A DNA stretch of 63,800 nucleotides, the filler included, from an uncultured Methanosarcinales archaeon (lineage in GTDB: Archaea; Nanobdellota; Nanobdellia; Woesearchaeales; CAZKBD01): NCBI GenBank assembly GCA_964550945.1. It is 3 parts of 3 records of this genome, joined end to end, with 100 filler letters (N's around TTAATTAATTAA, not from the genome) between each part and the next. Parts side by side here need not be neighbours in the genome. Positions count along the whole stretch, not along the records: positions 27,555 to 53,586 come from CAZKBD010000017.1; 2 more parts are not named here. One strand, written 5' to 3'. The position numbers were made by a program, and so were the translations under genes. Under the pieces are notes generated by a model that saw only the letters and a list, made by a program, of their open reading frames with translations, was not told the origin of the DNA and searched no databases. Position 1 is the stretch's first letter; each line of letters starts with the position of its first letter. Positions 27,455 to 53,686 of this stretch are shown one piece after another.

Positions 27455-27554
27455 NNNNNNNNNNNNNNNNNNNNNNNNNNNNNNNNNNNNNNNNNNNNTT
27501 AATTAATTAANNNNNNNNNNNNNNNNNNNNNNNNNNNNNNNNNNNNNNNNNNNN
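27455..27554. other. Artificial contig linker
   Basis: N44-TTAATTAATTAA-N44 (stops in all six frames). Confidence 0.97.
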
Positions 27555-33561: not shown

Positions 33562-34338
33562 CTAACCACCAGGGCAACTATGACCATGAAGCAGCCCGGG
33601 CCATTCTCCTTTCGGAACATAATGTTCCCCGTTATAATTCCTTATAAATCGATTATACTCCCCAATTAATGTGTTAAAGTCTTGCCTAAAATCCTCAAGC
33701 GATGACTGCATGGATGAGACTGCAGATAGCGAATCTGTACCTGCTAATTTATCTGTTAATCTTTCTAGTCTAGCATCAACTTTTTTTTCTATATTTGCAA
33801 CACTATTTTCAATATATTTGACGAACCTTCTTATTGACCCGTTACAGCAATCATGGTATTCATGATTATACAAATCACTTTCAAGGTCATCCTGCATTTT
33901 ACGCAAGCTATCTTTAATATCTTCCAAACGCCCTTCATAGTGCGATATCCTTTCTTCTATTTCGCTTTTTTTCTTTTCTAATCTTCTTTCCTCTTCCCTT
34001 CTTCTTTGGTCTTCATATGGGCCTGTATGATGGTACCACGCATTGTTAAGTACGGTTCCTGCAAAAGGATCTGTTATTAGGTGCCATTTTTGATCGCCGT
34101 ATGTACTGAGGGGCACGGTTAGAGTTTGGCTTGGAGTATAGCTTTTTAGTTCTCCCTGCAGTTTGGAAACTTCTTCAGTTAGTCTCTGAATTGTAGACTC
34201 TTTGTTAGTCACCATCCTCGTTATTCCAGCTATTCGTTCATTGAATTCGTGCTTTGTCTGCTCATCATTGATCTGGCTAACCAGTTCCTGAGCTCTTCGT
34301 ATATTTTCTCGTATTATATCATCTAATTCCATTTTCAA
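33562..34338 (-). CDS. Coiled-coil protein
   Basis: Heptad-rich; first ~22 aa resemble those of 31989-33548. Confidence 0.65.
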   Translation of the reverse strand: MKMELDDIIRENIRRAQELVSQINDEQTKHEFNERIAGITRMVTNKESTIQRLTEEVSKLQGELKSYTPSQTLTVPLSTYGDQKWHLITDPFAGTVLNNAWYHHTGPYEDQRRREEERRLEKKKSEIEERISHYEGRLEDIKDSLRKMQDDLESDLYNHEYHDCCNGSIRRFVKYIENSVANIEKKVDARLERLTDKLAGTDSLSAVSSMQSSLEDFRQDFNTLIGEYNRFIRNYNGEHYVPKGEWPGLLHGHSCPGG

Positions 34339-35342
34339 GAGTAGAGAACCTCTGTTTGTTTAACCAATTGAAGCTCACCTAGGTAAGATTGCAGCCTTTC
34401 TTTCATTTGCTGAAGCCTTTCTTTCTTGCCACTAGCTTGTTGTGTGCTCACTTCACGAGAAATTTGCTCTAGCTCTTTTGTTATCCTTTGATTTCTTGCG
34501 TATAGAGCAGCTTGGATTCCTTGTTTTGCTTCCTGAACTGCTACTAATCCCTGATCGATTAATGGTTGAGTTTGTGGATTAGAGTAGAGAGCAGGATCTG
34601 ATTTATATTCCTCACATTCTCTTTTGTAATCATCTAATAATTGCATAGCTGCAGATAATCTAGCAATATCTTGCTCTTTAAGGTACTCAGCTTTAAATAA
34701 GGGGCTGGTTTGTGATCTTTGGCTTTTTGCTGTTTCAGGCAACTGCATTAACATATCTCTAATTGCAACTGGCATATATGCCTTTAGAAATTTAACTGCT
34801 TTTTGTTCTAAATTTCCCTCTTCTCCAATAATTGGATCTCTCTCTGAATTGCTAATCCTAGAATATGCTATACTTATCATTAGAACTGATTTAAGATCAT
34901 TTTTATCTTTTGCTTCTGTTAATAAGCGCCTTACCTCTACATTTTCTAACATATGCAAGTATGCCAAAGCAGATATATTTATTTGAGGATCAACGCTATA
35001 TCTTGGCTGTGATGTTATATCCTCTTTTTTTCCAACAGTTTTCTTTTTTAATCTTCTATTAAAATATTGAAGAGATTTTTCGAATGATAAGGTCAATAAA
35101 TCATCAGGCCTTGCTTTTGGAGTATACCCTAAAAGGTAATCGCTAATAACCAGCTCTGTTAAGGTTTTGCCATTTTTTACCGCAGCACTTAAGAAATCAT
35201 CTGAAAGATTATCAATAAAATAATCTAAAATTAATAAATCACTTATACATCTATTAAATTCGATATTTCTAGTTTTATGGGTAGTGTGTGCTAATATTGT
35301 TTCAATAATAGATACCAAGGATTCTGCATTTTCAGGTGCCAT
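34335..35342 (-). CDS. Hypothetical helical protein
   Basis: 335 aa, overlaps both neighbours, C-terminal coiled coil. Confidence 0.65.
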   Translation of the reverse strand: MAPENAESLVSIIETILAHTTHKTRNIEFNRCISDLLILDYFIDNLSDDFLSAAVKNGKTLTELVISDYLLGYTPKARPDDLLTLSFEKSLQYFNRRLKKKTVGKKEDITSQPRYSVDPQINISALAYLHMLENVEVRRLLTEAKDKNDLKSVLMISIAYSRISNSERDPIIGEEGNLEQKAVKFLKAYMPVAIRDMLMQLPETAKSQRSQTSPLFKAEYLKEQDIARLSAAMQLLDDYKRECEEYKSDPALYSNPQTQPLIDQGLVAVQEAKQGIQAALYARNQRITKELEQISREVSTQQASGKKERLQQMKERLQSYLGELQLVKQTEVLYS

Positions 35343-36033
35343 GATAGTACCTGTATTTTAATTCTGGAACTGATTCAAGTATATGTAAGGCATTGTACCC
35401 ATCTTTTGCTATATCCATCTTATAAGTAGACAATAAGCTGCTGACTGCAGCAACCCTTTCTCTCACTGATTTAGGAACATCTTTCAGGTTGGCTTCCCCT
35501 AATGGTAATGTCAATAAATTATTGCAAAGCACCAAAAGATTGTATTCCTCATTTCTCACTAGCATTCGCTGGTATGCAGCCAAATCAAAATCAAGAATCT
35601 GCTGGATTGTTTGCTCTAGTATAGAATCCAATGGTTTTCTTTCTGCTTGTGGTTGCCTTCTGTAAAGGGATCTTGTAAAAGAGACTACTTCAACCCTTAA
35701 AGAAGTTGTAACATAAGCAGTCCAAGCATTAAGGCCAATGGTTTGATCTTCAAGGAAGGTATAAATCCCTGTATCTCCATGTTTTGCAACATAAGAATCT
35801 GCCATCAAAAGCTTTTTAACAGTTTCTGGATTTGGATTTTTAAGGTATTCTCTTACTTTTTCTGGATCTAAATTCCCAAGAAAATTGTCCATTAGTAATA
35901 TTTCTCTTAGACCCAATCCTTCATATCCAGAGTCTGTTTTTGAAATTGTAGGGGTTAAAATAACAGTACTCTTGTTGTTTCTAGCACTGCCTCTTCTTCT
36001 TAATCTTTCAAGTACAATATCCATGGATATCAC
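35332..36033 (-). CDS. Hypothetical protein
   Basis: 233 aa; shares VLExLxRRGxAR and GLREIxL with 46076-47233. Confidence 0.65.
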   Translation of the reverse strand: MISMDIVLERLRRRGSARNNKSTVILTPTISKTDSGYEGLGLREILLMDNFLGNLDPEKVREYLKNPNPETVKKLLMADSYVAKHGDTGIYTFLEDQTIGLNAWTAYVTTSLRVEVVSFTRSLYRRQPQAERKPLDSILEQTIQQILDFDLAAYQRMLVRNEEYNLLVLCNNLLTLPLGEANLKDVPKSVRERVAAVSSLLSTYKMDIAKDGYNALHILESVPELKYRYYHGT

Positions 36034-36539
36034 CGTCTAAATTTAGAATTTCTCAACATCTAACCGAATTAATAAAGCTTATTTGAGAAAAAGCAGGTAA
36101 ATTTCGGGGGTGGCGGAAATGTTGCAGATTTTTTGCAGATATAGTTTAGCTATACATATTAGTCTACTACAAGTTCAATCAGATTATAGGGTGTTTTCTG
36201 TCCACTTATCTCTTCCTCTTCTGTTTTAATTATTAATGCAGCGTAATCTGATAATCTATCAGTAAGTTCCATCTCTAGTTCCCGCCCATCATTTGTCCTC
36301 GCTATAAAATGGACTTTGCAAGAATGGGGGATTAATGCCATTTCAAAGCGTGTTTGAATCTGTTGTGATATACTTCTATCCTGAGCATTGTATGCTTGAT
36401 TATATTCATCTGCTTCAGGATCAAGCAATTTTTGTACTACATCACTAACAGACTTCCCTAAATATACTTCATCAACTCTTTTTGCTAATACTCCTCCACA
36501 TTCACCATCTGGCCTCAGTTTAAATTCTAAAGTTACATA

Positions 36540-37642
36540 TAGATAACTGCACGGTTTAGGTGACAAAGTTTATATACTAGTTCCTTAAATATAGTAGATT
36601 GTGAGCCAAAAAGAGATAAATGACGGAAGATCATATTCGCATGAGATTTTAGAGAATTATAGATTTCGTGCCATAGAACTGTATAAAGAAGGTAAAAAGA
36701 TAAATGAGATTGCTTATTTCTTTGGGGTGCACAGAGGCAGTGTATCTCGGTGGATAACTACCTACAAGAGAGAAGGTAAAGAAAAACTAAAAAGCAAAAA
36801 AGCTCCTGGTCCATCGTGTAAATTAGTCAATGCCGAAATGGAGGAACTACTACAGGTACTTGAAGATGAAGCTACACAGCACGGATTTGAAACCCCACTG
36901 TGGACATGCAAAAGATTACAGCAGGTTATCTATAAGAAGACAGGCAAAAAACTCCATCCCACTAATGTTATGCGCTGGCTAAAACGCTGGAAGATAACAA
37001 ACCAGAAGCCAGAAAGGCAGGCAAAAGAGCGTGACGAAAAAGCAGTTAAAAAATGGCTGAAGGAAGAATGGCCAAAAATTAAGGAGCATACCCGTCGGTG
37101 GCAGGCTATTCTATACTTCCAAGATGAGTCTGGAGTCTCCCTCACCGCCGTCTTAGGAAAAAGATGGGCTCCACAAGGAAAAACTCCGATTGTCAAAGTT
37201 ACTGGAAAAAGAGGAGGTTTATGTGTAACCTCTGCAATCAGTCCCGCTGGAAAGATGGTTTTTAGAATTGAAAAAAAGAAAGTGAATGCAGATAAGCATA
37301 TTGAGTTCTTAAAACAAATATTAAAGCATCATGGAAAAAGAAAAATAATTGTGATAGAAGATCGTGCGCCCCCTCACAGAGCAAAAAAGGTAGATAGGTT
37401 TGTTGAAGAAAATGATAGGAGACTAGCAGTATACCGCCTACCTTCCTATGCGCCCGAACTAAACCCAGATGAACATGTATGGGAATACTTAAAGGCATAC
37501 CAGCTGAAATCCCATCAAGCGCAAACTACCGATGAACTAAAGAAGCTTGTAAAGAAAAAGATGCAGAGTATACAGCGGAAGAAGGGATTGGTTAACTCTT
37601 TCTTTATTGGGACTTATGTAACCTAAGCTATGCAGTTATCTA
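36540..37642 (+). mobile_element. IS630-family insertion sequence (1103 bp)
   Basis: Terminal IRs TAGATAACTGCAcgGtTTAGGT / TAGATAACTGCAtaGcTTAGGT; TA target duplication at 36538-36539 and 37643-37644. Confidence 0.93.
36601..37626 (+). CDS. IS630 transposase
   Basis: N-terminal HTH, FQDESG, EDRAPPH, LPSYAPELNPDEHVW (DDE). Confidence 0.95.
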   Translation: MSQKEINDGRSYSHEILENYRFRAIELYKEGKKINEIAYFFGVHRGSVSRWITTYKREGKEKLKSKKAPGPSCKLVNAEMEELLQVLEDEATQHGFETPLWTCKRLQQVIYKKTGKKLHPTNVMRWLKRWKITNQKPERQAKERDEKAVKKWLKEEWPKIKEHTRRWQAILYFQDESGVSLTAVLGKRWAPQGKTPIVKVTGKRGGLCVTSAISPAGKMVFRIEKKKVNADKHIEFLKQILKHHGKRKIIVIEDRAPPHRAKKVDRFVEENDRRLAVYRLPSYAPELNPDEHVWEYLKAYQLKSHQAQTTDELKKLVKKKMQSIQRKKGLVNSFFIGTYVT

Positions 37643-37660
37643 TACATGGGGTTTGCCATA

Positions 37661-37781
37661 TTTACATCCCTCCATAAATTTGTTGATTTTTTGAAAACAA
37701 ATTCCTTTAATAAGGCTTATGGTAAAAAAAGGCTTGAATTTCCGTTGGTGTTGGAAAAAATTAGTGAAAAGTCGGAAAAGT
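37661..37781 (-). promoter_or_regulatory. Upstream region of the Ubl paralogue, duplicate of 45180-45300
   Basis: 72 bp identical (37661-37732 = 45180-45251), then the GAATTTCCG...TCGGAAAA motif. Confidence 0.85.
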
Positions 37782-37816
37782 AACGAATAGCAATCAGAAG
37801 CTATATAAACTCTATA

Positions 37817-38593
37817 ATGATTCTCAACATTAAAAAAATGGATGAATTGTTGAGGATATTAAAAACAAGACGAACAGCAGATTCAGAAAGATATTCAAAA
37901 AGGGCTTCCTCGGTTGAAGCTTGGAGAGATTATTGGAACAATAAAAATCATAGAACAGCCATTTCTGGTATAGACGGAAAACTTTACAGTGCATATAACT
38001 GGATTGACGGGAGGGAAATAAGAATGTTCTGTATGCCAGGGGTAGACGAGAGAGTCATACCTTATGTAGAAGCAGGAATTCAAGATATGGTTCAACAGAT
38101 AGGATTGGATTTCTCAATGAATTATTATGGTTCTCATGTTTCTGCAGTAGAGCAGGTTAAACAATCTGCAAGAAAAGATGGAACTATTGATGGACATAAA
38201 CTTTTAAAGATACTTATTGCAGAAACTTGGAGGAATCCTAGCTATGGAGGAAGGCCTCATGCTGATGTGATGATAATTGACAGATTTCTAGCGAGTGGAG
38301 ACGAAAATTGGGGGCAATCAGAATTTTCCGAAGGTTATATGATTTTGGCTTTACCTAATACTAGGCAAAGGTCTTTTGAGTTTATAAGAAACATTTCAAA
38401 ACATGAAACTGGACATTTATTTGGTCTTGGAGAGCACCATGACACAACTAATGTGGATGGTTACAGGCATGTTCCAAAGTGTAATATGTTATGGGAAGTA
38501 CCTATAGATTATACGTGTGATAAATGTGCTGATGCAATAACTTATTTTTGGAGAGGAATTGAAACTAGGACAGGAGAAAAGTTCTTCAGATGA
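37817..38593 (+). CDS. Zinc metalloprotease (metzincin/archaemetzincin-like)
   Basis: HETGHLFGLGEH followed by CNM and CDKC. Confidence 0.75.
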   Translation: MILNIKKMDELLRILKTRRTADSERYSKRASSVEAWRDYWNNKNHRTAISGIDGKLYSAYNWIDGREIRMFCMPGVDERVIPYVEAGIQDMVQQIGLDFSMNYYGSHVSAVEQVKQSARKDGTIDGHKLLKILIAETWRNPSYGGRPHADVMIIDRFLASGDENWGQSEFSEGYMILALPNTRQRSFEFIRNISKHETGHLFGLGEHHDTTNVDGYRHVPKCNMLWEVPIDYTCDKCADAITYFWRGIETRTGEKFFR

Positions 38594-38705: not shown

Positions 38706-40172
38706 TCAAGAAAACAACTGTTTCACTTCATTAATCTGTTGTCCATACATCCTATTTGCATACCTGTTATTGCCTATTATATCCCATAGGGGGTTCAAGA
38801 GTTCGCGTCTTGCCATAAGTTCGCCTTTATGGTGAACGTAGATAGATATTACCGCTTCTAATCGATCTGACCATTTATTTAATTTATTAGCCGAGGAATC
38901 TTCAACAACATTTCCATCTCTAATTGACGCCAAATTAGCTCTATAATCACCTGCTAGAATTTTTCCTATTGTGCCCACTATATTTTCATCGTTATTTTCT
39001 GAAGAGAATAAAGGAGTATAATATTCCTGCATTCTATGTCCATAGTTAGATGTCCTTCTTTTAAGAGATTCAATTATCGGGTCACTATAACCATTGTTAG
39101 GGCTTATGTGGACAGCTGGTTGTGTTCTAGCTCCTCTATCAGTAGGCAAGGTGTAATTTGACGGCGGTCTCTCAACACCAGTATACTTATCACTAAGTCT
39201 TTCTCCATTTGGAAGAATTATTCTCCCTATCAAATCTTCATCAATTCTGTCTGTATCTAAACTGCATGTATCTGCTCCTTCAACAAATTCAATTCTAGGA
39301 GCAATCCCGTGTAGATCTGTATGATTCTCCTCTATTACTCTTTTAATAGTATCACCTTCGATTACTAATCTTGGATGTTTAGCCTGTACCCTTAGGGCAG
39401 GAGCATCTCTGTTCGCATTCACAATAAAAGTAGGAGTATAAGTAAAACCTTCATATCTTAGACTAATATCTCCCCACGGGATATATACTGTTTTTTTTGC
39501 CCCCCAACTATTTAAGATGTCCCTTAATCTTGATTTATCTTCATGGGAAAATTCATTTGAAATATTTCCATGAGAATGAGCCCACCCTATTATTTCTTTC
39601 CTTAGCCTGTCTTTTATATCATGATGGGATCTTATTGCTCCAAAACCAGTTATTTCGCAGTGGTCGTGTCTTACTTCTTGTTCGTGACCTATGTAAACAT
39701 CAGTTATTATTGGTTCTCCGTTAGTTTTATGACCAATTAAAAAGAAACTTACTTCATAAGGAACACTATCATTTAACACATGCCTTGTAAGTTCACCAAA
39801 TCTCTGTGCTATATATTGTGATTTATCCCAAGCTTCTTGCGTGATTTTTATTGTGCTTGTCTCTTGTCTGACAACATCTTCGATATTTCTATTGATTTCA
39901 GCCACAATCAACCTTCTAATTTTTCGTTCTGCCATGGCTGTCCTTTGCCTATATAAATCACTTCTAAGATAACTATGGAAATCAAAAGAACCATCGCTTC
40001 TGAAGAAATCAGCCATTCTTTGACCTCTCAGTCGGTATCTCCCTAAATCTATAATTCTTGTGGATTTGGTTGTAGGAGTACCATTGTGTAGTTCCTCTCC
40101 TAAATTAACATCGCCTGGAAAAACGTGATTATCTACTTCTTCAACAACAGCGTCTAAAGTTGCAGTCGGCAT
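38706..40172 (-). CDS. JAB/MPN+ metalloisopeptidase 2 with N- and C-terminal extensions
   Basis: EVSFFLIG...GWAHSHGNISNEFSHED, an intact E...HxH-x7-S-x2-D JAMM motif. Confidence 0.85.
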   Translation of the reverse strand: MPTATLDAVVEEVDNHVFPGDVNLGEELHNGTPTTKSTRIIDLGRYRLRGQRMADFFRSDGSFDFHSYLRSDLYRQRTAMAERKIRRLIVAEINRNIEDVVRQETSTIKITQEAWDKSQYIAQRFGELTRHVLNDSVPYEVSFFLIGHKTNGEPIITDVYIGHEQEVRHDHCEITGFGAIRSHHDIKDRLRKEIIGWAHSHGNISNEFSHEDKSRLRDILNSWGAKKTVYIPWGDISLRYEGFTYTPTFIVNANRDAPALRVQAKHPRLVIEGDTIKRVIEENHTDLHGIAPRIEFVEGADTCSLDTDRIDEDLIGRIILPNGERLSDKYTGVERPPSNYTLPTDRGARTQPAVHISPNNGYSDPIIESLKRRTSNYGHRMQEYYTPLFSSENNDENIVGTIGKILAGDYRANLASIRDGNVVEDSSANKLNKWSDRLEAVISIYVHHKGELMARRELLNPLWDIIGNNRYANRMYGQQINEVKQLFS

Positions 40173-40266: not shown

Positions 40267-42108
40267 TCAACACGTATGTGGATTATTTGTCTTCTTTTTA
40301 TTTCTCATATAAATTCTAGGATTTCCAAAAGATGAATATTGAAAAGCAGTAGTGATAGGATTATTATTCAGATGAGGATTAAAAAAATTGATAGATTCGG
40401 CTACCATTTGACTTGCAATAATTATATTAGGTATTATCGTACTTGCTTGTACATCTCCACAGGGGTTGCTTTCTGGAAAGTCTCTCAGGTTTAATTGACA
40501 ATTTACACATTTTGTTTTCCCAGGCATATATGCTGCTAACTGTCCACCCCTTGGATCGGTGCCTCCGTCTATATAAGGTACTCTGTTTCTTACTGCGAAC
40601 TCATTTAACCAGTTCCTTGCATATTTGTTATCAAAGCAGCCAAAAATTATGTCATAATTTCCTCTTAAAAGACGATCATAAGTGACTAACTCAACTCCTT
40701 TTTCTTGTTCTCTAGGACTCAAGCTAAATTTATTACTCGCATAATCTTCATACTTATCTGAAACGCCACTTGCCTGCATCATCTCTATTATCCATCCTTT
40801 ATCTCTTTCCAAATCAACTACTCCAATTTTTCCAAAAATAAAATCTGAATGAACATTTGGATTAATCTCTATTACTCTTTCAGCAACAACTTCAGCTTTC
40901 CTATCAAGAACCCTTCCTCTTAATAGCACCTGCCTTGCAAGATTATGGTTTTCGATATAGTCCATATCTAAAATGTCTATCCTACCAACACCCATAGTTG
41001 CAAGTTCTAAAGCAACAAAATTGCCTAGTGCTCCCCCACCTGCAACTAGGACTTTAAAGTCTTGATAGACTCCTATCCTATCCTGTTTTAGATCAGATTC
41101 AAAGCCCCTTCTGCTTCGAGAGCATGAGTTATAGACAAATCGCCTGTTTGAGGGCATAGGATCGTCTGTACCATCCTTTATATATCTAAATTTAAATCTC
41201 CTGAACTCTTCTGATACAAGCCCTGCTATTACTCCGCTGGGAAATGATCCTTGTTGCAAACCTTCAAACTCTGCATGAACCATAGCATCTAAATCTACAT
41301 TTTCTGATACAACTCTTACTTTGCCGTTCTGAGGCCAATAGCATGTGTAGGCTCCTTTTGTTCTATCGCTTGATGCTGAAATTACAGGTATGTTGTAGCC
41401 AGATGCGCCTAAAGCATATTCTAGTACCGCTCTTTTGGATATTGTATCATTTGTAGCTTCAATTATTATTTCAGGTCTGAATCTATAAGCAAATGCCTCA
41501 ACAAATCTGGCATGTCTAGAGATTAAATTTCCTGAGCTGTTTAGCTCTCTTAATGCTGCTTCAATATGCCTGACTTTTTTTTGGCCTTTATGCATTATAT
41601 CATGGCTGCATAAAAAGTCATGCCTATCACTATCGCTTATTCTTTTATTGTCCATAAATGCAAGAACACCACCATATCTGTTGCCTGCAACACCCATCCC
41701 AGTTAAACAGCATAATATCATCTGGGCTAAAACATCTGAGCCAACTACTAGGACTCTAGAATTATACAAAATCTCTTGTCTTTTTTTTCCTAATTCCCAT
41801 AGCACAACATCATAAATTTCTTTAAGAGCTTCTTTAGGGTCTTTGCTTCTATCTGGGTTTTTGCATACACGATTGAATGTTTCTCTTGGCAATCCTTCTT
41901 GATTCATGTATCTTGTTAACTCTTTTTCAATAGCTTTTATTTTCCGATCAATACTAGTGCCGCTCTCCACATCATGAATATCTCTGGCGTATCCAGAAAA
42001 TAGTTCTGGATCATAACCCCATGCTCTTGCATTTCTATCATCCCTATCATTTATAACAAGCTGGGTCATGTTTGGCCTCATTAGGAGTATCTCTTTTGGA
42101 TTTATCAA
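40267..42108 (-). CDS. E1-like activating enzyme with tandem ThiF/UBA domains
   Basis: Domain 1 degenerate (RVLVVGSDVLA); domain 2 GGGALG, DMDYIENHNLARQ, RKAE, CFDN, CVNC, then NPC; real start may be ATG 42069. Confidence 0.92.
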   Translation of the reverse strand: MINPKEILLMRPNMTQLVINDRDDRNARAWGYDPELFSGYARDIHDVESGTSIDRKIKAIEKELTRYMNQEGLPRETFNRVCKNPDRSKDPKEALKEIYDVVLWELGKKRQEILYNSRVLVVGSDVLAQMILCCLTGMGVAGNRYGGVLAFMDNKRISDSDRHDFLCSHDIMHKGQKKVRHIEAALRELNSSGNLISRHARFVEAFAYRFRPEIIIEATNDTISKRAVLEYALGASGYNIPVISASSDRTKGAYTCYWPQNGKVRVVSENVDLDAMVHAEFEGLQQGSFPSGVIAGLVSEEFRRFKFRYIKDGTDDPMPSNRRFVYNSCSRSRRGFESDLKQDRIGVYQDFKVLVAGGGALGNFVALELATMGVGRIDILDMDYIENHNLARQVLLRGRVLDRKAEVVAERVIEINPNVHSDFIFGKIGVVDLERDKGWIIEMMQASGVSDKYEDYASNKFSLSPREQEKGVELVTYDRLLRGNYDIIFGCFDNKYARNWLNEFAVRNRVPYIDGGTDPRGGQLAAYMPGKTKCVNCQLNLRDFPESNPCGDVQASTIIPNIIIASQMVAESINFFNPHLNNNPITTAFQYSSFGNPRIYMRNKKKTNNPHTC

Positions 42109-43351
42109 TCATTTCAAGAATATTGCTATAAACTTCACTCAATTTTTTTAACCAAAAACTTTTGGAACATGGTATGTGGCTTAATATACCTGATGATCTT
42201 TCGATTTCTGCATTTATAGCACTTAATAATTGACAATAACGATCCTTTTGGGAAGCTAGCTCACCTAAAAGATCTTCCTGTAGATTCCTCATACATTCAA
42301 TATATTTTCTGTGCCTTTCTGATTCTTCGTCATTACCTGTTATTGTCTTTCTGTCATATCTTCTTACTGTTTCATCCAGCTGTCTAGCTCTATTGTACAG
42401 CTCACTTGCCAGACAAAAGTGGTCTTCAATACTGTCTGCGTCTCTTAGAACATCTTCTACGCCTCTAGAACTTAACCTCCTGCTGATTTGCTTGCAGGAA
42501 ATAAGACCATTTCGAGCATTTTCATAGTCTCCTTCGATATCTGGTGCGGATGTTTCATATCTGCGCCTAAGATTTACTACACGCTCAACCAGTTCTTGGT
42601 CAATTTTTTCTCTGTCCAAGATACTTCTATCTCCATCTTCAACAATCTCATAGCCTGCATTTTTTACCATTCCATTCTTGCCATCCAATTGGTAGGCAAT
42701 AACACAAAAAGGATTATCTGCATTCGCATTAAATGTTATGCCATAAGTGTATCTTATTTCTCTAGCGGACAAGGTACTCAATATTATAGGATAGCCAGAA
42801 ATAACTTCAAAATCTAGAAATCCAAAAGATTCATGATGAAGTCTGAACTTATCATCACCTAAACTGATTTCCAAATATCTGCCTATTTCATCAATAACAA
42901 ACCTAGCAGAAGCATTTCTTGGTGGAACAGTTAAACCTACTATTTTTTTCATACCCAAATTACTTAAAACTTCAATAATTGTATTATCATCTATATCAGA
43001 ATAGAATGTAGACATTTTCCCATGCGAATGGCCCCAGCCGACAATTCTTCTCTTTGATTCTCTTTTTATACTATGATAGGATTTTATTACTCCAAATCCA
43101 CTAATATCACATCGTGTTGGGGTGACATCCTGTTCATGACCTATACAAACATCTTCTATTACTCTGTTCTCTGTGCTTTGTTCAACGTCGCCTAACAGAA
43201 AAAACCCCACTTCCATACCTCCTTCAAATAATTCACATATCCTCTTAGAGACATAATTAGCTTTATCAAACGCTTGCTTTGTTATTCTGACTGGTGCCAG
43301 CTCTCTCCTAACCTGTTCCTCTAAACTTAATATAACTTTTTGTTTAGCCAT
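42047..43351 (-). CDS. JAB/MPN+ metalloisopeptidase 1 with C-terminal helical region
   Basis: EVGFFLLG...GWGHSHGKMSTFYSDID, intact JAMM motif. Confidence 0.87.
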   Translation of the reverse strand: MAKQKVILSLEEQVRRELAPVRITKQAFDKANYVSKRICELFEGGMEVGFFLLGDVEQSTENRVIEDVCIGHEQDVTPTRCDISGFGVIKSYHSIKRESKRRIVGWGHSHGKMSTFYSDIDDNTIIEVLSNLGMKKIVGLTVPPRNASARFVIDEIGRYLEISLGDDKFRLHHESFGFLDFEVISGYPIILSTLSAREIRYTYGITFNANADNPFCVIAYQLDGKNGMVKNAGYEIVEDGDRSILDREKIDQELVERVVNLRRRYETSAPDIEGDYENARNGLISCKQISRRLSSRGVEDVLRDADSIEDHFCLASELYNRARQLDETVRRYDRKTITGNDEESERHRKYIECMRNLQEDLLGELASQKDRYCQLLSAINAEIERSSGILSHIPCSKSFWLKKLSEVYSNILEMIDKSKRDTPNEAKHDPACYK

Positions 43352-44666
43352 TTTGGAAAATCCTCTCTTTGGCTATTCCGTGGGCAGAACAATAAGACTC
43401 AGCAGATGTTCTGCTAGTGGCTATTGGTGTAAATTCCTCAAGCCAATGTACTGGCCTGTCATTTCCTATACGGTCTCTGCTGTGGATTGGATAGCAATAA
43501 TATCCTGTTTCCAGATTTTTTTCAGCTTGTCGCATGACTTGGGCAATTTTTTTTGCCAGTGTTTTTGGTTTTTTTAGGCTGTACATATCATTAAATTTAA
43601 CTTGAAGATCGTCCCACCTGTTTCTTGTACCCCCAGTGTAACAGATACTGCCGTTGCTATGAACAAAAGGATGCCTATAATGCATGTTAAGAACTACTGC
43701 TGGAGCAACAATTTGCAGGCTGTTATTACACACCTCTAGATCTATCCCTAAATCTACGTTTCCGAAAGCAAAATATTTTCCTTCTTTTTCTATCAGAAAA
43801 GGATTTACACTAATTGATATTCTGTATCTATTTGAGCCTGATTTCTGGAACCCAATTTTACCCCTATGAGAACTAGTAATCCCAGAATATCTACTTTTAC
43901 TGCTTATCCCTTGTTCCAACGCTGATTTAAAACTCAATAATCTTTTTATGTAATCAATATGCACTTTTCCATGTTCTAATGCTTTAGCTTCAATTCTATT
44001 TAGTAATCTTTGTTCATATTCCCCCATCAAATCAGAAAGATCACGCCAATAACTGATGGCCATTTGACAACCTGCGAATTTAACATGACCACTAGCAGTT
44101 TCATTCCCACAATCCCTAAGGCGAAATACCCTGCCTCCAAGAACAATGATCCTATTATTCTGTAATAGAATACCCTCTAGGCTGGTTAACGAGGAGTTTA
44201 AATCCTCTATTCCCGGGATGTGCTCTAGAGTAGGAATATCATCAAATTGAGAAACATCTGGAACTTCTGGTTCGTTGCTATTTCTATTCTCATGATTATA
44301 TGCATTGAAAACATCAACCATAATAAAGCGTTCAACTGAGTTATCTTGAATAGAATCATAGACATTACCAAGGGACTGTACCTGTGATTTAAGTTCGTCA
44401 ATTTTACTTAAAATCTTTGATTGTATGACCCAACTCATGTAATCTGTAATTTGCGCTTTATACTCTTCAAATAATTCTTGTTCTAATACATGGATTTCTT
44501 CAGCTTCTTCTAATGCGTATTTCTTTCCTAGATATTGAAGAAAATTTTCGCCGCTGAAATGACCATTGGTCATATGTAATGTATGCACTCTTCCGTCTAG
44601 TATAGCGAATGAATCTTTACTTAATAAAAACTCTTTTAAAAAATTTGAATCAAGGGACAGATTCAT
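43344..44666 (-). CDS. E2/UBC-like conjugating enzyme with long N-terminal extension
   Basis: APAVVLNMHYRHPFVHSNGSICY resembles the UBC signature PPxVxF...HPNVxxxGxIC; Cys codon at 43641-43643; sits between the Ubl and JAB/E1 genes. Confidence 0.72.
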   Translation of the reverse strand: MNLSLDSNFLKEFLLSKDSFAILDGRVHTLHMTNGHFSGENFLQYLGKKYALEEAEEIHVLEQELFEEYKAQITDYMSWVIQSKILSKIDELKSQVQSLGNVYDSIQDNSVERFIMVDVFNAYNHENRNSNEPEVPDVSQFDDIPTLEHIPGIEDLNSSLTSLEGILLQNNRIIVLGGRVFRLRDCGNETASGHVKFAGCQMAISYWRDLSDLMGEYEQRLLNRIEAKALEHGKVHIDYIKRLLSFKSALEQGISSKSRYSGITSSHRGKIGFQKSGSNRYRISISVNPFLIEKEGKYFAFGNVDLGIDLEVCNNSLQIVAPAVVLNMHYRHPFVHSNGSICYTGGTRNRWDDLQVKFNDMYSLKKPKTLAKKIAQVMRQAEKNLETGYYCYPIHSRDRIGNDRPVHWLEEFTPIATSRTSAESYCSAHGIAKERIFQNG

Positions 44667-44707
44667 TTTTAAAAAGATATTTTACTGCTAGTTTAATTAG
44701 CATATTG

Positions 44708-45178
44708 TTAGCCGTCAGTTTTTGGAGATGGGTTGCTATGATTCATCAAGCTATCTAACCCACCCCCATAAGGTGGAGAAACACATAGTTCAATCAGATT
44801 ATAAGGTACTCTTTGTCCATCTTCTTCTTGTTCTCTTGTTTTAAGTATTCTATCAGAGTAATCAGAAAGAACTTTGTTAAGGTCTAAGGGTATCTCATTT
44901 GGAGGCACATCATTTGTATATGCAGAAACCTGAACTTTTTTCCTTGGGTCCATCGTTGTTTCGTGAAACCACCTCTGGATTTGATTTGCCATACCCTTTT
45001 CATAAGCATTATATTCTGGGTTATATTCGTCTGAATCAGGATCAAGTAATTTTTGCACTGCATCCCTAACAGGTCTCCCTAAATAAGCTTCATCCACTTT
45101 TTTTGCTAACCTATCATCTACATTTTCATTTTCTGCTCCTAAAACAGGCTCTAGTGTTATAAACATTGGCTTAGCCAT
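44708..45178 (-). CDS. Ubiquitin-like protein precursor (GGG at residues 138-140 plus 16-aa tail)
   Basis: LDLNKVLSDY...NLIELCVSPPYGGG parallels ubiquitin LEDGRTLSDY...TLHLVLRLRGG; first gene of the E2-JAB-E1-JAB run. Confidence 0.75.
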   Translation of the reverse strand: MAKPMFITLEPVLGAENENVDDRLAKKVDEAYLGRPVRDAVQKLLDPDSDEYNPEYNAYEKGMANQIQRWFHETTMDPRKKVQVSAYTNDVPPNEIPLDLNKVLSDYSDRILKTREQEEDGQRVPYNLIELCVSPPYGGGLDSLMNHSNPSPKTDG

Positions 45179-45179
45179 T

Positions 45180-45300
45180 TTTACATCCCTCCATAAATTT
45201 GTTGATTTTTTGAAAACAAATTCCTTTAATAAGGCTTATGGTAAAAAAAGGTCTGAATTTCCGTCGATGTTAGAAAAAATTAGTGAAGAATCGGAAAAGC
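45180..45300 (-). promoter_or_regulatory. Promoter, RBS and operator-like region of the Ubl cluster
   Basis: Minus-strand GGAGG before the ATG and a TTATTAAA TATA-like box; GAATTTCCG...TCGGAAAA motif shared with 37722-37781 and 48201-48260. Confidence 0.75.
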
Positions 45301-45308
45301 TACGAAAA

Positions 45309-46064
45309 CTACCTCCACTGATTAAACCTTTCTAATACATCCATATCTGTAAGCACCTTGTATTCCTTGTGTTCTATACCAAATGTGTGGTATGCTGGGT
45401 CTACCATGATATCGCGACTTAATGTATGAACCATTGCACATGCATGATGTACTTTCTTTCTATGGCAATCTCTTGTTACGCTTACGTAACTTGCTCTTAG
45501 GTTTACACTTCTTGCCATGGTTATATAAAGAAAAGCCATTTCTCCGCAAACACCTTGTTGATTCTGTAAGACTTCTGTTGAGTTGCTATAGCCGTAAAGC
45601 CTTCTCGAATCTCCATATTGGATATTAGCTTCAATCCAGTCATAGATAGCTCTTGCCTTTTCTTCATCAGTTCTTGCAGTTCTTGTATGCCTTTTTATGA
45701 TTTGCACAAGCTGAGGGCTTATCGCAAATGGATTTTTGATACTGCCATCATTCACAAAAACCTGATAGTCATCGCTTATTTGGCTTATATCAAGAGAAGG
45801 ATCAACAACTTGCTTTTTATGTTGATTCTTAATCTGGGTAATAATTAATGCTGTACTATAGCGATCCGGCTTTGGAGTTTCTAGAGTGTCACCAGTTCGG
45901 TATTTTCTCTCTGTTTTTAACCTCTCTAGAAGATTTTGTTCATGAGAAGCGGATGATCTAATAGTTCTTTGCCTTAGTGATGCAATTGTTCTATCCTTAA
46001 AGTGGTCCCCTCTTTGGTGTCTTGCCTTATTTTTTAATTCTTGGACAATTCTATCCAAAGCCAT
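45309..46064 (-). CDS. Transglutaminase-like protein
   Basis: AIYDWI, GVCGEMAFLY...R, HACAMV, VDPA (Cys-His-Asp triad). Confidence 0.88.
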   Translation of the reverse strand: MALDRIVQELKNKARHQRGDHFKDRTIASLRQRTIRSSASHEQNLLERLKTERKYRTGDTLETPKPDRYSTALIITQIKNQHKKQVVDPSLDISQISDDYQVFVNDGSIKNPFAISPQLVQIIKRHTRTARTDEEKARAIYDWIEANIQYGDSRRLYGYSNSTEVLQNQQGVCGEMAFLYITMARSVNLRASYVSVTRDCHRKKVHHACAMVHTLSRDIMVDPAYHTFGIEHKEYKVLTDMDVLERFNQWR

Positions 46065-46075
46065 TATACAATCCC

Positions 46076-47233
46076 CTACTTATGTGAAGGGAGTTCAGCA
46101 GCTCTTAATGGCTCGTAAGCTAGCTCTGATCTATAAACTCCAGAATGTACCTCTTGGACTAGTCTTCTTAGATTGGCATTTGTTGATTGGATAATCTTTG
46201 GCGTAGGATGATTATTGACTACTTCTGTGATATCTCTTACACTCTGGATATAGCTATCATTCAATTGCCTGTTAAAGTCAGAAAGCACCAAAACACCAGC
46301 CCCAACTCTTTTAACACCCTCTGATAAGGTTGAAACCGCTCTCCATACCCCCTCATTGTTGTCTAATGTATCCTGATATAATTTAGTAATAAATGCCATT
46401 TCCATAACCCTATAAAGAACAGTTGCAAAAAGATCTTCCTGCATTAATAGGTTATCGATATCTTGGACATGATGTTCATCTCCGATTATGGCTACCCTTC
46501 TTTCGTAACCCATCTGTCTTACTGTTCTTTTGCTTTGGATTACTTTTCTGAGCATCTCAAAATATTGAAGATCATCTCTATCCATTTCGCTTAATTTTTT
46601 GCAAACTTCTTCATAATTTTCAATTTCTGGTGGAAGTACTTTGACTTCCAAAGCTTGCCTTGTTGCCCGTTCTCTCTCATTTTGCTCTATCAATCTATCC
46701 AAAGCATTTGTTGTAACTTTTAGGTCTGTCCCATAGCTTGCAGTCATATGTACTAAAATGTAATTTAGCTCCCCTACATTTTGCTGCTGTTGGATAAATA
46801 ACTCATGGATTGACCTATATGCTGGTTTTTTTCCTATTAACCCTCTTATAGCATCTATTAATGCAACCTCAGCCCTATAAACCCCAGAATCCCTCATCCT
46901 AAGAATCTTATCTAATTCTCTTTGACCAGCATTTACGTCATCTACTATCAGCTGAATTTCTCTTAACCCAGCATCGTCGCCATATGCTCTTGTTGGTTTT
47001 CCAGGCAAGGTTATTGCTGCTTCATAAAGCCTTCTGCTAATAGGAGTTTGAGGCTCTCTAACGACTACAGGATGTTGTGTTTTTTTATTTGGGGTAGGAG
47101 CTTTTCTAGCACCACCTCTTCTCTTCAGATTTTCTAAAACTGGATCATTATCTTTGTCCATTATTACCACCGCCATTTCTTCTTTAATATTGTTCTGTAT
47201 CTCAATGCCATGTTTAGTTTCATCTTTACTCAA
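46076..47233 (-). CDS. Coiled-coil hypothetical protein
   Basis: Long amphipathic helices; overlaps 47226-47513. Confidence 0.65.
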   Translation of the reverse strand: MSKDETKHGIEIQNNIKEEMAVVIMDKDNDPVLENLKRRGGARKAPTPNKKTQHPVVVREPQTPISRRLYEAAITLPGKPTRAYGDDAGLREIQLIVDDVNAGQRELDKILRMRDSGVYRAEVALIDAIRGLIGKKPAYRSIHELFIQQQQNVGELNYILVHMTASYGTDLKVTTNALDRLIEQNERERATRQALEVKVLPPEIENYEEVCKKLSEMDRDDLQYFEMLRKVIQSKRTVRQMGYERRVAIIGDEHHVQDIDNLLMQEDLFATVLYRVMEMAFITKLYQDTLDNNEGVWRAVSTLSEGVKRVGAGVLVLSDFNRQLNDSYIQSVRDITEVVNNHPTPKIIQSTNANLRRLVQEVHSGVYRSELAYEPLRAAELPSHK

Positions 47234-48200: not shown

Positions 48201-48260
48201 TATAAAAAAGCCACGAATTTCCGTCTTTGCTGAAAAAATCAGGTATCAGTTCGGAAAATC
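48201..48260 (-). promoter_or_regulatory. Third copy of the island operator-like motif
   Basis: AAAAAAG-N4-GAATTTCCGT...AAAAAAT...TCGGAAAA with the same spacing as 45241-45300. Confidence 0.65.
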
Positions 48261-48749
48261 GTTAAAAACGTGTGGAATCAGGCCAATATGGTCTTTTTTT
48301 GTAAGGAATGATTCTCGCTTTAGTTCTTCAACAACAAAATGTTCGCTTATTTTTTCAATTCCGAAAATTGTTAGGCTTTCCAGAAATTCTTGAGATTCCT
48401 TTAAATTTTTAAAAACCCCCTCAACAAAAAAATCTGAACCGTTGTTTGTTCTATAAACTGTATTAACATTTTTATGGTCGATTAGGAAATTTCTCAAAGT
48501 GTCTTTTTTTTCTGCCTTTATTATATAGTTCACTTTAATGTTATAACCCATCTTAGGAAAATCCATGATAGTAATATGCTTTTTTATTAATTTCTTATTA
48601 AGCGAGTTAATCTTATCAAATACTGTGCTAGTTGGAATATCTATCTTTCTTGATATTTCAGCAAGGCTTATCCTAGAGTTCTTCCTCAGCTCATGCAAAA
48701 TCAGAAGTTCGTTATAGCTTAGGCTTGCTTTTGTTTGGTCGGGTTTCAT
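48246..48749 (-). CDS. Lrp/AsnC-family transcriptional regulator
   Basis: ILHELRKNSRISLAEISRKIDIPTSTV HTH plus RAM domain. Confidence 0.9.
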   Translation of the reverse strand: MKPDQTKASLSYNELLILHELRKNSRISLAEISRKIDIPTSTVFDKINSLNKKLIKKHITIMDFPKMGYNIKVNYIIKAEKKDTLRNFLIDHKNVNTVYRTNNGSDFFVEGVFKNLKESQEFLESLTIFGIEKISEHFVVEELKRESFLTKKDHIGLIPHVFNDFPN

Positions 48750-51033: not shown

Positions 51034-51498
51034 TCACATAACTATATCAATAAGGGAAGAGTCTGACATGAATGCCTCTTTCTTTACATCTTCAATAAGG
51101 TAGTAAACCTGCGTTTGCTCTAATTTAAACTTTCCACCAAACATATCGATAAAGTCTTCAACATCCTTTACATTTTTAAAAATGCCCTCAATAAGAAAAT
51201 CAAAGCCATTGCTTATTTTAAATACTGAATTTATATTCTGATGGCTTAATAGAAATTTCTTTGCTTCTTCTCTTAAATTTCTGTCTACTCTAACCATAAT
51301 ATTCACCCTTGCATTGAAGCCAAGCTTCGAGAAATCTATCAGTGTTGTATGCTTTGTTATCAAGTTCCCTTGATAGCATTTTATTTTGTCAAAAATAGTT
51401 GAGATAGGCACATTTGTATGTTTGCTTATTTGTGTTAATGTTTCGCGAGCATTGTTTCTAAGCTCACTTAGTATTAGCAAGTCCTTTTTTGAAAGCAT
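51034..51498 (-). CDS. Lrp/AsnC-family transcriptional regulator (paralogue of 48246-48749)
   Basis: ILSELRNNARETLTQISKHTNVPISTIFDKI...KHTTLIDFSKLGF. Confidence 0.9.
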   Translation of the reverse strand: MLSKKDLLILSELRNNARETLTQISKHTNVPISTIFDKIKCYQGNLITKHTTLIDFSKLGFNARVNIMVRVDRNLREEAKKFLLSHQNINSVFKISNGFDFLIEGIFKNVKDVEDFIDMFGGKFKLEQTQVYYLIEDVKKEAFMSDSSLIDIVM

Positions 51499-53586: not shown

Positions 53587-53686
53587 NNNNNNNNNNNNNN
53601 NNNNNNNNNNNNNNNNNNNNNNNNNNNNNNTTAATTAATTAANNNNNNNNNNNNNNNNNNNNNNNNNNNNNNNNNNNNNNNNNNNN
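53587..53686. other. Artificial contig linker
   Basis: N44-TTAATTAATTAA-N44. Confidence 0.97.

Follow-up and report, generated by a model that had tools for sequence, protein, structure and literature searches.

A DPANN archaeal operon probably encodes a JAB-matured, E1/E2-conjugated ubiquitin-like tag enlarged by inserts within its own domain

In the Type II Bil systems, a JAB protease trims a ubiquitin-like protein (Ubl) precursor in which the terminal glycine is masked by a tail of up to 9 aa (10.1101/2023.09.26.559546, 10.1101/2023.09.04.556158). Likewise, in Caldiarchaeum subterraneum, CsRpn11 is reported to cut the ubiquitin precursor of this organism after GG, removing a 9-aa tail, and the corresponding operon brings together an archaeal Ub, an E1, an E2 and a JAMM protease, as does the locus described below (PMC6043591). 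The trimming of such precursors by a JAB is known biology, and the trimming logic that we propose is not new.

The present analysis concerns a Ubl precursor gene of a woesearchaeal DPANN archaeon (assembly GCA_964550945.1). It is found in a stretch of DNA of 63,800 nucleotides, which was analysed as a whole and is called here the window. The window consists of three contigs separated by N spacers at 27455-27554 and 53587-53686, at which the gene neighbourhood ends. The operon lies on contig C17 (window positions 27555-53586), where the Ubl gene is followed downstream, on the minus strand, by the genes of an E2-like protein, JAB 1, an E1 and JAB 2. The positions of these genes and of the elements discussed below are collected in Table 1. 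An original prediction made from the DNA alone had proposed that the gene encodes an enlarged Ubl precursor whose GG is masked by a tail and exposed by a JAB. We consider that the operon produces a JAB-matured, E1/E2-conjugated and internally enlarged Ubl tag, and we give this reading a probability of roughly 0.72.

Table 1. Features of the Ubl operon and of the paralogous copy, numbered along the window
Feature	Positions	Strand	Basis
Ubl precursor gene (P0001)	44708..45178	minus	156-aa ORF, fold prediction, family search
Predicted mature Ubl, residues 1-140, end Gly140	44759..45178	minus	terminal Gly position, ubiquitin alignment
Gly138-Gly139-Gly140, predicted conjugation end	44759..44767	minus	alignment conservation
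16-residue tail and stop; tail starts L-D-x-x-M (loose tail motif)	44708..44758	minus	sequence
Insert 1, residues 45-76: D-x-x-N-x-x-Y loop and 19-residue helix, between main helix and strand 3	44951..45046	minus	model
LSDY, residues 104-107	44858..44869	minus	short helix after 36-103 beta-bridge, DSSP
Insert 2, residues 108-125: short helix and acidic hairpin lengthening the last strand	44804..44857	minus	model
E2-like protein, 440 aa, invariant His332 and Cys342	43344..44666	minus	alignment, structure comparison
JAB/JAMM protease 1 (E47, H108, H110, S118, D121)	42047..43351	minus	profile match, motif
Single-chain E1, 613 aa: degenerate and active ThiF domains, invariant Cys550 in short crossover loop	40267..42108	minus	two ThiF stretches
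JAB/JAMM protease 2 (H199, H201, S209, D212; catalytic Glu column invariant)	38706..40172	minus	profile match, motif
Paralogous Ubl domain, 47% identical, no Gly-Gly or tail, severed from its start by IS630	36159..36566	minus	
IS630 element interrupting codon 6 of the paralogue, with 28-nt inverted ends and a transposase gene (36601-37626)	36538..37644	plus	
Duplicated region 5' of the paralogue with its initial codons (start codon 37659)	37634..37787	minus	direct repeat
Second copy of the 154-nt repeat, spanning the region 5' of the Ubl gene and its initial codons	45153..45306	minus	

The Ubl reading frame is preceded by a GGAGG-type ribosome site just 5' of its start, and a groundwater contig, possibly from the source sample itself, shows 0 differences from window positions 44382-45209. 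An AlphaFold2 model computed with 81 sequences (mean pLDDT 91, pTM 0.80) comprises strands 5-11 and 24-28, a helix at 37-44, a loop at 45-57, a second helix at 58-76, a strand at 81-87 and a hairpin 113-119/122-137. The strands, helix, inserts, LSDY, GGG and 16-residue tail that had been picked out from the DNA are all present and match this secondary structure. When the model was compared with 48,161 chains in a VIA structure search, all 50 of the 50 matches listed were beta-grasp domains (Z 6.0-7.5). Whole ubiquitin was aligned over 75 of its 75 residues with an rmsd of 2.6 and a Z of 6.0, residues 1-75 (8q7r_U) spreading over model residues 5-139, and ISG15, FAT10, SUMO, SAMP1 and BilA were aligned as well; the PB1, DIX and FERM domains scored equal to true modifiers. 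Foldseek gave no match at E<=0.001, most of its rows being ubiquitin-like domains at E 0.003-0.2, and the Caldiarchaeum ubiquitin CsUb appears among them. The beta-grasp fold claimed by the original prediction is thus borne out by AlphaFold, Foldseek and VIA at the level of a predicted ubiquitin-like structure, with middling Z scores (below 8) and complete agreement of the rows.

The added length comes from insert 1 (45-76), from insert 2 (108-125), which is poorly conserved in the family, and from a variable loop at residues 12-23. The mature length near 140 aa, nearly twice that of ubiquitin, that had been anticipated proved to be typical, the full-length family members measuring 128-158 aa when mature. 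Moreover, twenty regions retrieved at weaker E2-like matches showed Ubl candidates immediately upstream that are more divergent and measure 127-205 aa, so that the enlarged size is general. In the model, residues 36 and 103 also form a beta-bridge, after which comes a short helix (104-106). We take this to be the same arrangement as the 22/55 bridge and the 56-59 helix of ubiquitin, so that LSDY would occupy the ubiquitin-equivalent place. The four letters are found exactly in 5 of the 87 family members, in the form [LIVM][SA]D[YH] in 27, and Tyr107 is present in 72. The proposal of a ubiquitin LSDY motif is therefore sound as regards a structurally equivalent site, whereas the four-letter identity is largely luck. 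Two further interpretations of the D50-N53-Y56 loop of insert 1 were discarded: that it is the most conserved feature of the family, since 17 of 17 distant candidates do without it, which makes it either specific to a subfamily or the product of a search bias, and that it is an EF-hand, since its spacing does not fit the consensus.

The Ubl family was collected with HMMER from 1.84 billion representatives, a profile of the protein and its paralogue yielding 87 hits, both of these included. A word-index protein search returned the query alone and a pattern scan of genome contigs confirmed 0 of 110 stretches. Neither the Ubl nor the E2-like protein falls into a Pfam, NCBIfam or PADLOC family, and we found no sequence-level link of the Ubl to ubiquitin. 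A consistent Pfam family match was obtained for 0 of the 81 aligned members, the ubiquitin family PF00240 matched neither P0001 nor any of these 81 members nor, at E<=1, anything in the genome, the Ubl profile produced noise alone at E>0.7 against PDB sequences, and a search of the ESM Atlas with homologue P0010 gave no usable match. Among 401 sampled genomes of the phylum, at least 25 contain a match to the Ubl profile and 55 a match to the E2-like profile; the relatives of the E1 are labelled Woesearchaeota and two relatives of the Ubl Nanoarchaeota, labels that point to a DPANN host.

Counting from the Leu of the last strand (the Leu131 column), 52 of the 87 members have GG within the next 14 residues, at offsets 6-9. 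Such a fixed placing, compared to a background of 23 GG per 9004 positions, is more than chance would give. A single-Gly variant was seen in 17 members, and 18 have neither GG nor a single Gly. At the position equivalent to G140, Gly is present in 62 members and GG in 48, and in the 87 alignment rows G139 is found in 57 and G140 in 66; the tails beyond this position measure 0-28 aa and five members end exactly at the Gly. The Gly position, these tail-less members and the alignment of ubiquitin Gly75 with Ubl residue 139 make Gly140 the likely point after which the precursor is cleaved, the computed masses being 17,594 Da for the precursor and 15,900 Da for residues 1-140 without Met. A Gly-type end is also found in 14 of the 17 distant Ubl candidates, mostly with a short tail. 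The alignment of homologues thus agrees with the original prediction in that GG is conserved at a fixed place and the tail is variable, but GG is not invariant.

The relatives lacking Gly include proteins with Cys-rich ends, one tandem repeat, one membrane-helix fusion and the paralogue in the window, suggesting that the domain also works unconjugated. In P0012, P0040, P0071, P0089 and P0090, Cys-rich ends take the place of Gly-Gly and are possibly metal-binding or lipidated. Other architectures are seen in P0007, P0013 and L043:5911-7137, where the domain is joined to predicted membrane helices, repeated in tandem with GG absent, or placed first in a 408-aa protein. At L069:6420-7367, a complete E2-E1-JAB set is headed by two Ubl candidates that are nearly identical, lack a terminal Gly and carry the tail motif described below. 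The paralogue of the window lies 8 kb from the Ubl gene and ends without reaching a Gly. Its upstream region and initial codons were part of the duplication, as a direct repeat of 154 nt (89%) shows, and one contig, possibly from the source sample, bridges its arrangement with IS630 at 36024-37690. It should also be noted that the paralogue heads a second run of orphan genes (35332-36033 and 34335-35342), the relatives of which follow the JAB in 5 other loci.

The genomic context was compared over 48 regions, consisting of the window, 27 regions found by Ubl matches and 20 found by E2-like matches. The Ubl, E2-like, E1 and JAB genes occur together in 32 of the 48, in varying order (Ubl-E2-E1-JAB in 15 versus Ubl-E2-JAB-E1 in 8, with variants). 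In five genomes that were checked, including those with a tailed Ubl lacking an adjacent JAB, a JAB and an E1 of the family were present in 5 of 5. A scan of the 48 regions with one RING pattern, which may miss divergent RINGs, gave no match to a RING E3; DUF6527 had no match among the 16 proteins scanned, and PADLOC run on the operon returned generic E1 and JAB matches alone. Around the operon, we also observed two Lrp/AsnC regulators upstream (48246-48749 and 51034-51498), a transglutaminase-like gene (45309-46064) and a coiled-coil gene (46076-47233), whose families are found near the operon in 9, 6 and 3 of 28 regions, respectively.

Among 33 E1s, the GxGxxG motif, D381, R392, K404, D493 and C550 are invariant in all, the first ThiF domain being degenerate (G-S-D) and the second carrying the invariant GxGxxG. 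In their crossover loop, the invariant Cys is preceded by 10-25 residues and followed by 7-12, and the helical CYS domain of about 80 aa is absent from all 33; with regard to the four-Cys structural zinc of the Bil E1, CxxC is present in 21 and a terminal Cys in 23. The nine best rows obtained with the E1 profile against the PDB are eukaryote-type E1s. A viral scan with the E1 alignment gave three weak ThiF matches, of which L058 was inspected and has no E2-like, JAB or Ubl neighbour. Regarding the proteases, the catalytic E/H/H/D residues are conserved in 19 of 19 JABs, and Caldiarchaeum Rpn11 (6fjv) is the PDB entry that the JAB profile matches best (E 9.7e-11). The two JABs of the operon are both equipped with complete JAMM motifs.

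The E2-like protein is less easily classified. H332 and C342, within the motif HPF-x-IC, are invariant in 25 of 25 sequences and form the sole invariant pair. Its profile weakly matches an E2 (E 0.62), the top two Foldseek rows of its model are E2 entries at E of about 0.2, and VIA aligned UbcH10 over 123 residues with a Z of 6.4 and an rmsd of 4.3, the E2 matches (Z 5.7-6.4) ranking under unrelated helical bundles. Its architecture consists of a duplicated N-terminal module and coiled helices inserted into a UBC-like fold. The first UBC helix (about 109-124) is split from the rest by a large insertion, and the duplicated beta-rich module, with no recognised fold, is a candidate built-in target selector. 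In three loci (L081, L031 and L077), E2-like genes are found paired or single with no E1 or JAB in the region fetched.

A model of the complex between the E1 and Ubl residues 1-140 scored 0.62 (median of three runs) compared to 0.01 for the best of three controls; the runs share at least 78% of their contacts, with a partner pLDDT of at least 80. The corresponding pass mark is reached by 116 of 157 solved pairs and by 2 of 215 mismatched pairs, counts that are only rough for custom alignments, and the pass may reflect likeness because E1-Ubl complexes have already been solved. In the model, Ubl residues 134-139 contact the E1 at D493, 516-518 and 543-549, and Gly140 and Cys550 are absent from the confident contacts. 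The most confident contacts connect the helix of insert 1 (66-76) to E1 residues 34-44, 96 and 99. The N-terminal E1 insert contacted in this way is present in 9 of the 33 E1s, and the contact residues of the Ubl are poorly conserved. Insert 1 is therefore predicted to be a binding surface for the E1 in this lineage and not family-wide, which gives the idea that the inserts serve as binding surfaces a lineage-specific backing for insert 1. It likely adds a specificity contact with the matching E1 insert.

The tail is variable yet not random in sequence. The motif L[DE]xx[LIV], which was picked after inspection of the 33 tails of at least 5 aa, is found in 8 of them compared to a shuffle mean of 1.07, a count reached in 0 of 2000 shuffles. 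A looser motif, fitted by the P0001 tail, is found in 14 of the 33 (shuffle mean 2.4). Among held-out distant Ubls, 4 of the 7 tails of this length have L[DE]xx[LIV] (shuffle mean 0.13, 0 of 5000 shuffles), and it also ends two Gly-less Ubl copies. As kin are not independent, all these shuffles overstate the significance. The same motif is found at the N-termini of 13 of 42 JABs, versus 2.6 expected, and is not enriched at those of the E1s (2 of 40) and E2-like proteins (3 of 46); other genes in the loci carry it in just 25 cases versus 15.7. On C17, five minus-strand genes open with it (31989, 33562, both JABs and 45309). Many orphan genes elsewhere in the genome also start with L[DE]xx[LIV], and a genome-wide N-terminal excess is not clear (58 of 1588 ORFs carry the motif among their first 15 aa, versus 41 and 46 in control windows). 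Also speaking against a general signal, the tail and JAB motifs occur together in just 4 of 33 loci. A ribosome-binding-site artefact is an unlikely source of the tail motif, as GGAG underlies 2 of 7 true tail motifs. One might imagine that the tail acts as an address label: L[DE]xx[LIVM], shared with the N-termini of the JABs and several orphan neighbours, would be a signal that these symbiotic archaea use at protein ends for sorting or docking. We hold this suggestion to be speculative and unlikely. Were it true, precursor and protease would converge on one partner or be directed to the host cell, and removal of the tail would arm the enlarged tag while erasing its address.

Taken together, these results are consistent with the following sequence of events. 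The Ubl would be made as the 156-aa precursor that its reading frame spells out, and one or both JAMM proteases would cut after Gly140, freeing the 16-aa tail, as suggested by the Gly position, the tail-less relatives and the known systems. The single-chain E1 is predicted to bind the Ubl and, judging from its invariant residues, would adenylate Gly140 and load it onto Cys550, from which the Ubl would be handed to Cys342 of the E2-like protein. In what is the weakest step of this scheme, the N-terminal module of the E2-like protein might choose targets without an E3, the tag being joined to lysines or other amines. The JABs would also take the tag off.

The maturation step could be assigned differently. 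The same tag might be matured by another protease, either the transglutaminase-like protein or a zincin-like protein (37817-38593), the JABs merely removing conjugates; of 28 regions, 6 have the first family in the vicinity of the operon and 2 have the second, and the two JABs of the operon may point to a split of labour between them. However, JABs are found with the operon in many more regions (22 of 28), and JAB relatives take on both tasks in Bil (10.1101/2023.09.26.559546) and in Caldiarchaeum (PMC6043591), so that we regard maturation by another protease as very unlikely. The fate of the exposed Gly could differ too. As the E1 belongs to the ThiF/MoeB family, the Ubl might be a sulfur carrier of the ThiS/MoaD/SAMP type, with the trimmed Gly turned into a thiocarboxylate that serves in biosynthesis or in a tRNA reaction, the Cys of the E2-like protein acting as a sulfur relay. 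This seems improbable given that the genome has its own separate ThiS gene beside a second ThiF gene on contig C8, that the Ubl has no ThiS match and is adjoined by the E2-like gene, that the E1 profile is closest to eukaryote-type E1s among its nine best PDB rows, and that no sulfur enzyme gene was recognised beside the operon.

Another alternative, to which we attach just as little weight as to the sulfur carrier, is that the protein is never conjugated and serves as a beta-grasp adaptor or oligomerising module, its tail being kept and GG being a flexible linker. The GG-less, tandem and membrane-fused relatives would fit such a role, as would the PB1, DIX and FERM domains that score as high as true modifiers and the conserved motif of the tail. 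Against it stand the constant spacing between the last strand and the Gly, with five relatives ending at this residue, the position of the gene at the head of an E1-E2-JAB operon and the model in which the Ubl C-terminal segment is set at the E1 adenylation site. We thus retain the JAB-matured and conjugated tag as the preferred reading. By analogy with Bil, the operon would most likely play a role in defence or conflict.

Among the open-access papers listed in our literature searches, we found none that describes a DPANN E1-E2-JAB-Ubl operon or an enlarged Ubl family of this kind. Should conjugation be confirmed, DPANN archaea would offer a third prokaryotic route to a complete pathway of E1, E2, Ubl and DUB. 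The nearest known arrangement is that of the Type II BilABCD of Ensifer aridi (10.1101/2023.09.26.559546; PDB 8TYZ), which has the same order, Ubl-E2-DUB-E1, as the operon of the window. Bil also has, as in the window, a single-chain E1 with inactive and active adenylation domains and a precursor with a conserved Gly and a tail (JAB-cut in Bil), and it includes no E3. BilA itself aligned with the Ubl model over 83 residues (Z 6.6, rmsd 3.3). From the same account, BilA is a plain beta-grasp with tails of at most 9 aa, whereas the window family has two internal inserts and tails of up to 28 aa. The Bil E1 is described with a CYS domain of about 80 aa where the window E1 has a 10-25-aa loop instead, and the Bil E2 with a CEHH motif in which His follows Cys, whereas in the E2-like protein His precedes Cys (HPF-x-IC) and a 260-aa extra module is present. 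Two large JABs and DPANN archaeal hosts also set the window operon apart from Bil as it is described there. The system thus would work like Bil yet lacks two of its defining features, the CYS domain and the CEHH-type E2.

The Caldiarchaeum system, in the account cited above (PMC6043591), differs in that the CsUb precursor has 87 aa, the usual size for ubiquitin, and is encoded in an operon with RING E3s, whereas the window tag measures about 140 aa, has no Pfam match and is found in an operon with no RING pattern seen. Enlarged Ubls are also known from the Bub operons and the multi-domain bacterial Ubls (10.1101/2024.11.21.623966), for which oligomerisation is proposed or shown. According to this source, Bub operons have fused AB/CD or BD genes and DUF6527, whereas the genes of the window are separate and DUF6527 is lacking from the proteins scanned. 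The bacterial enlarged Ubls described there grow by tandem beta-grasp repeats or N-terminal extensions, whereas the window Ubl has grown by inserts within one domain. Growth inside one beta-grasp domain, with an insert predicted in this lineage to meet a matching E1 insert, would represent a simple case of tag-enzyme specificity arising.
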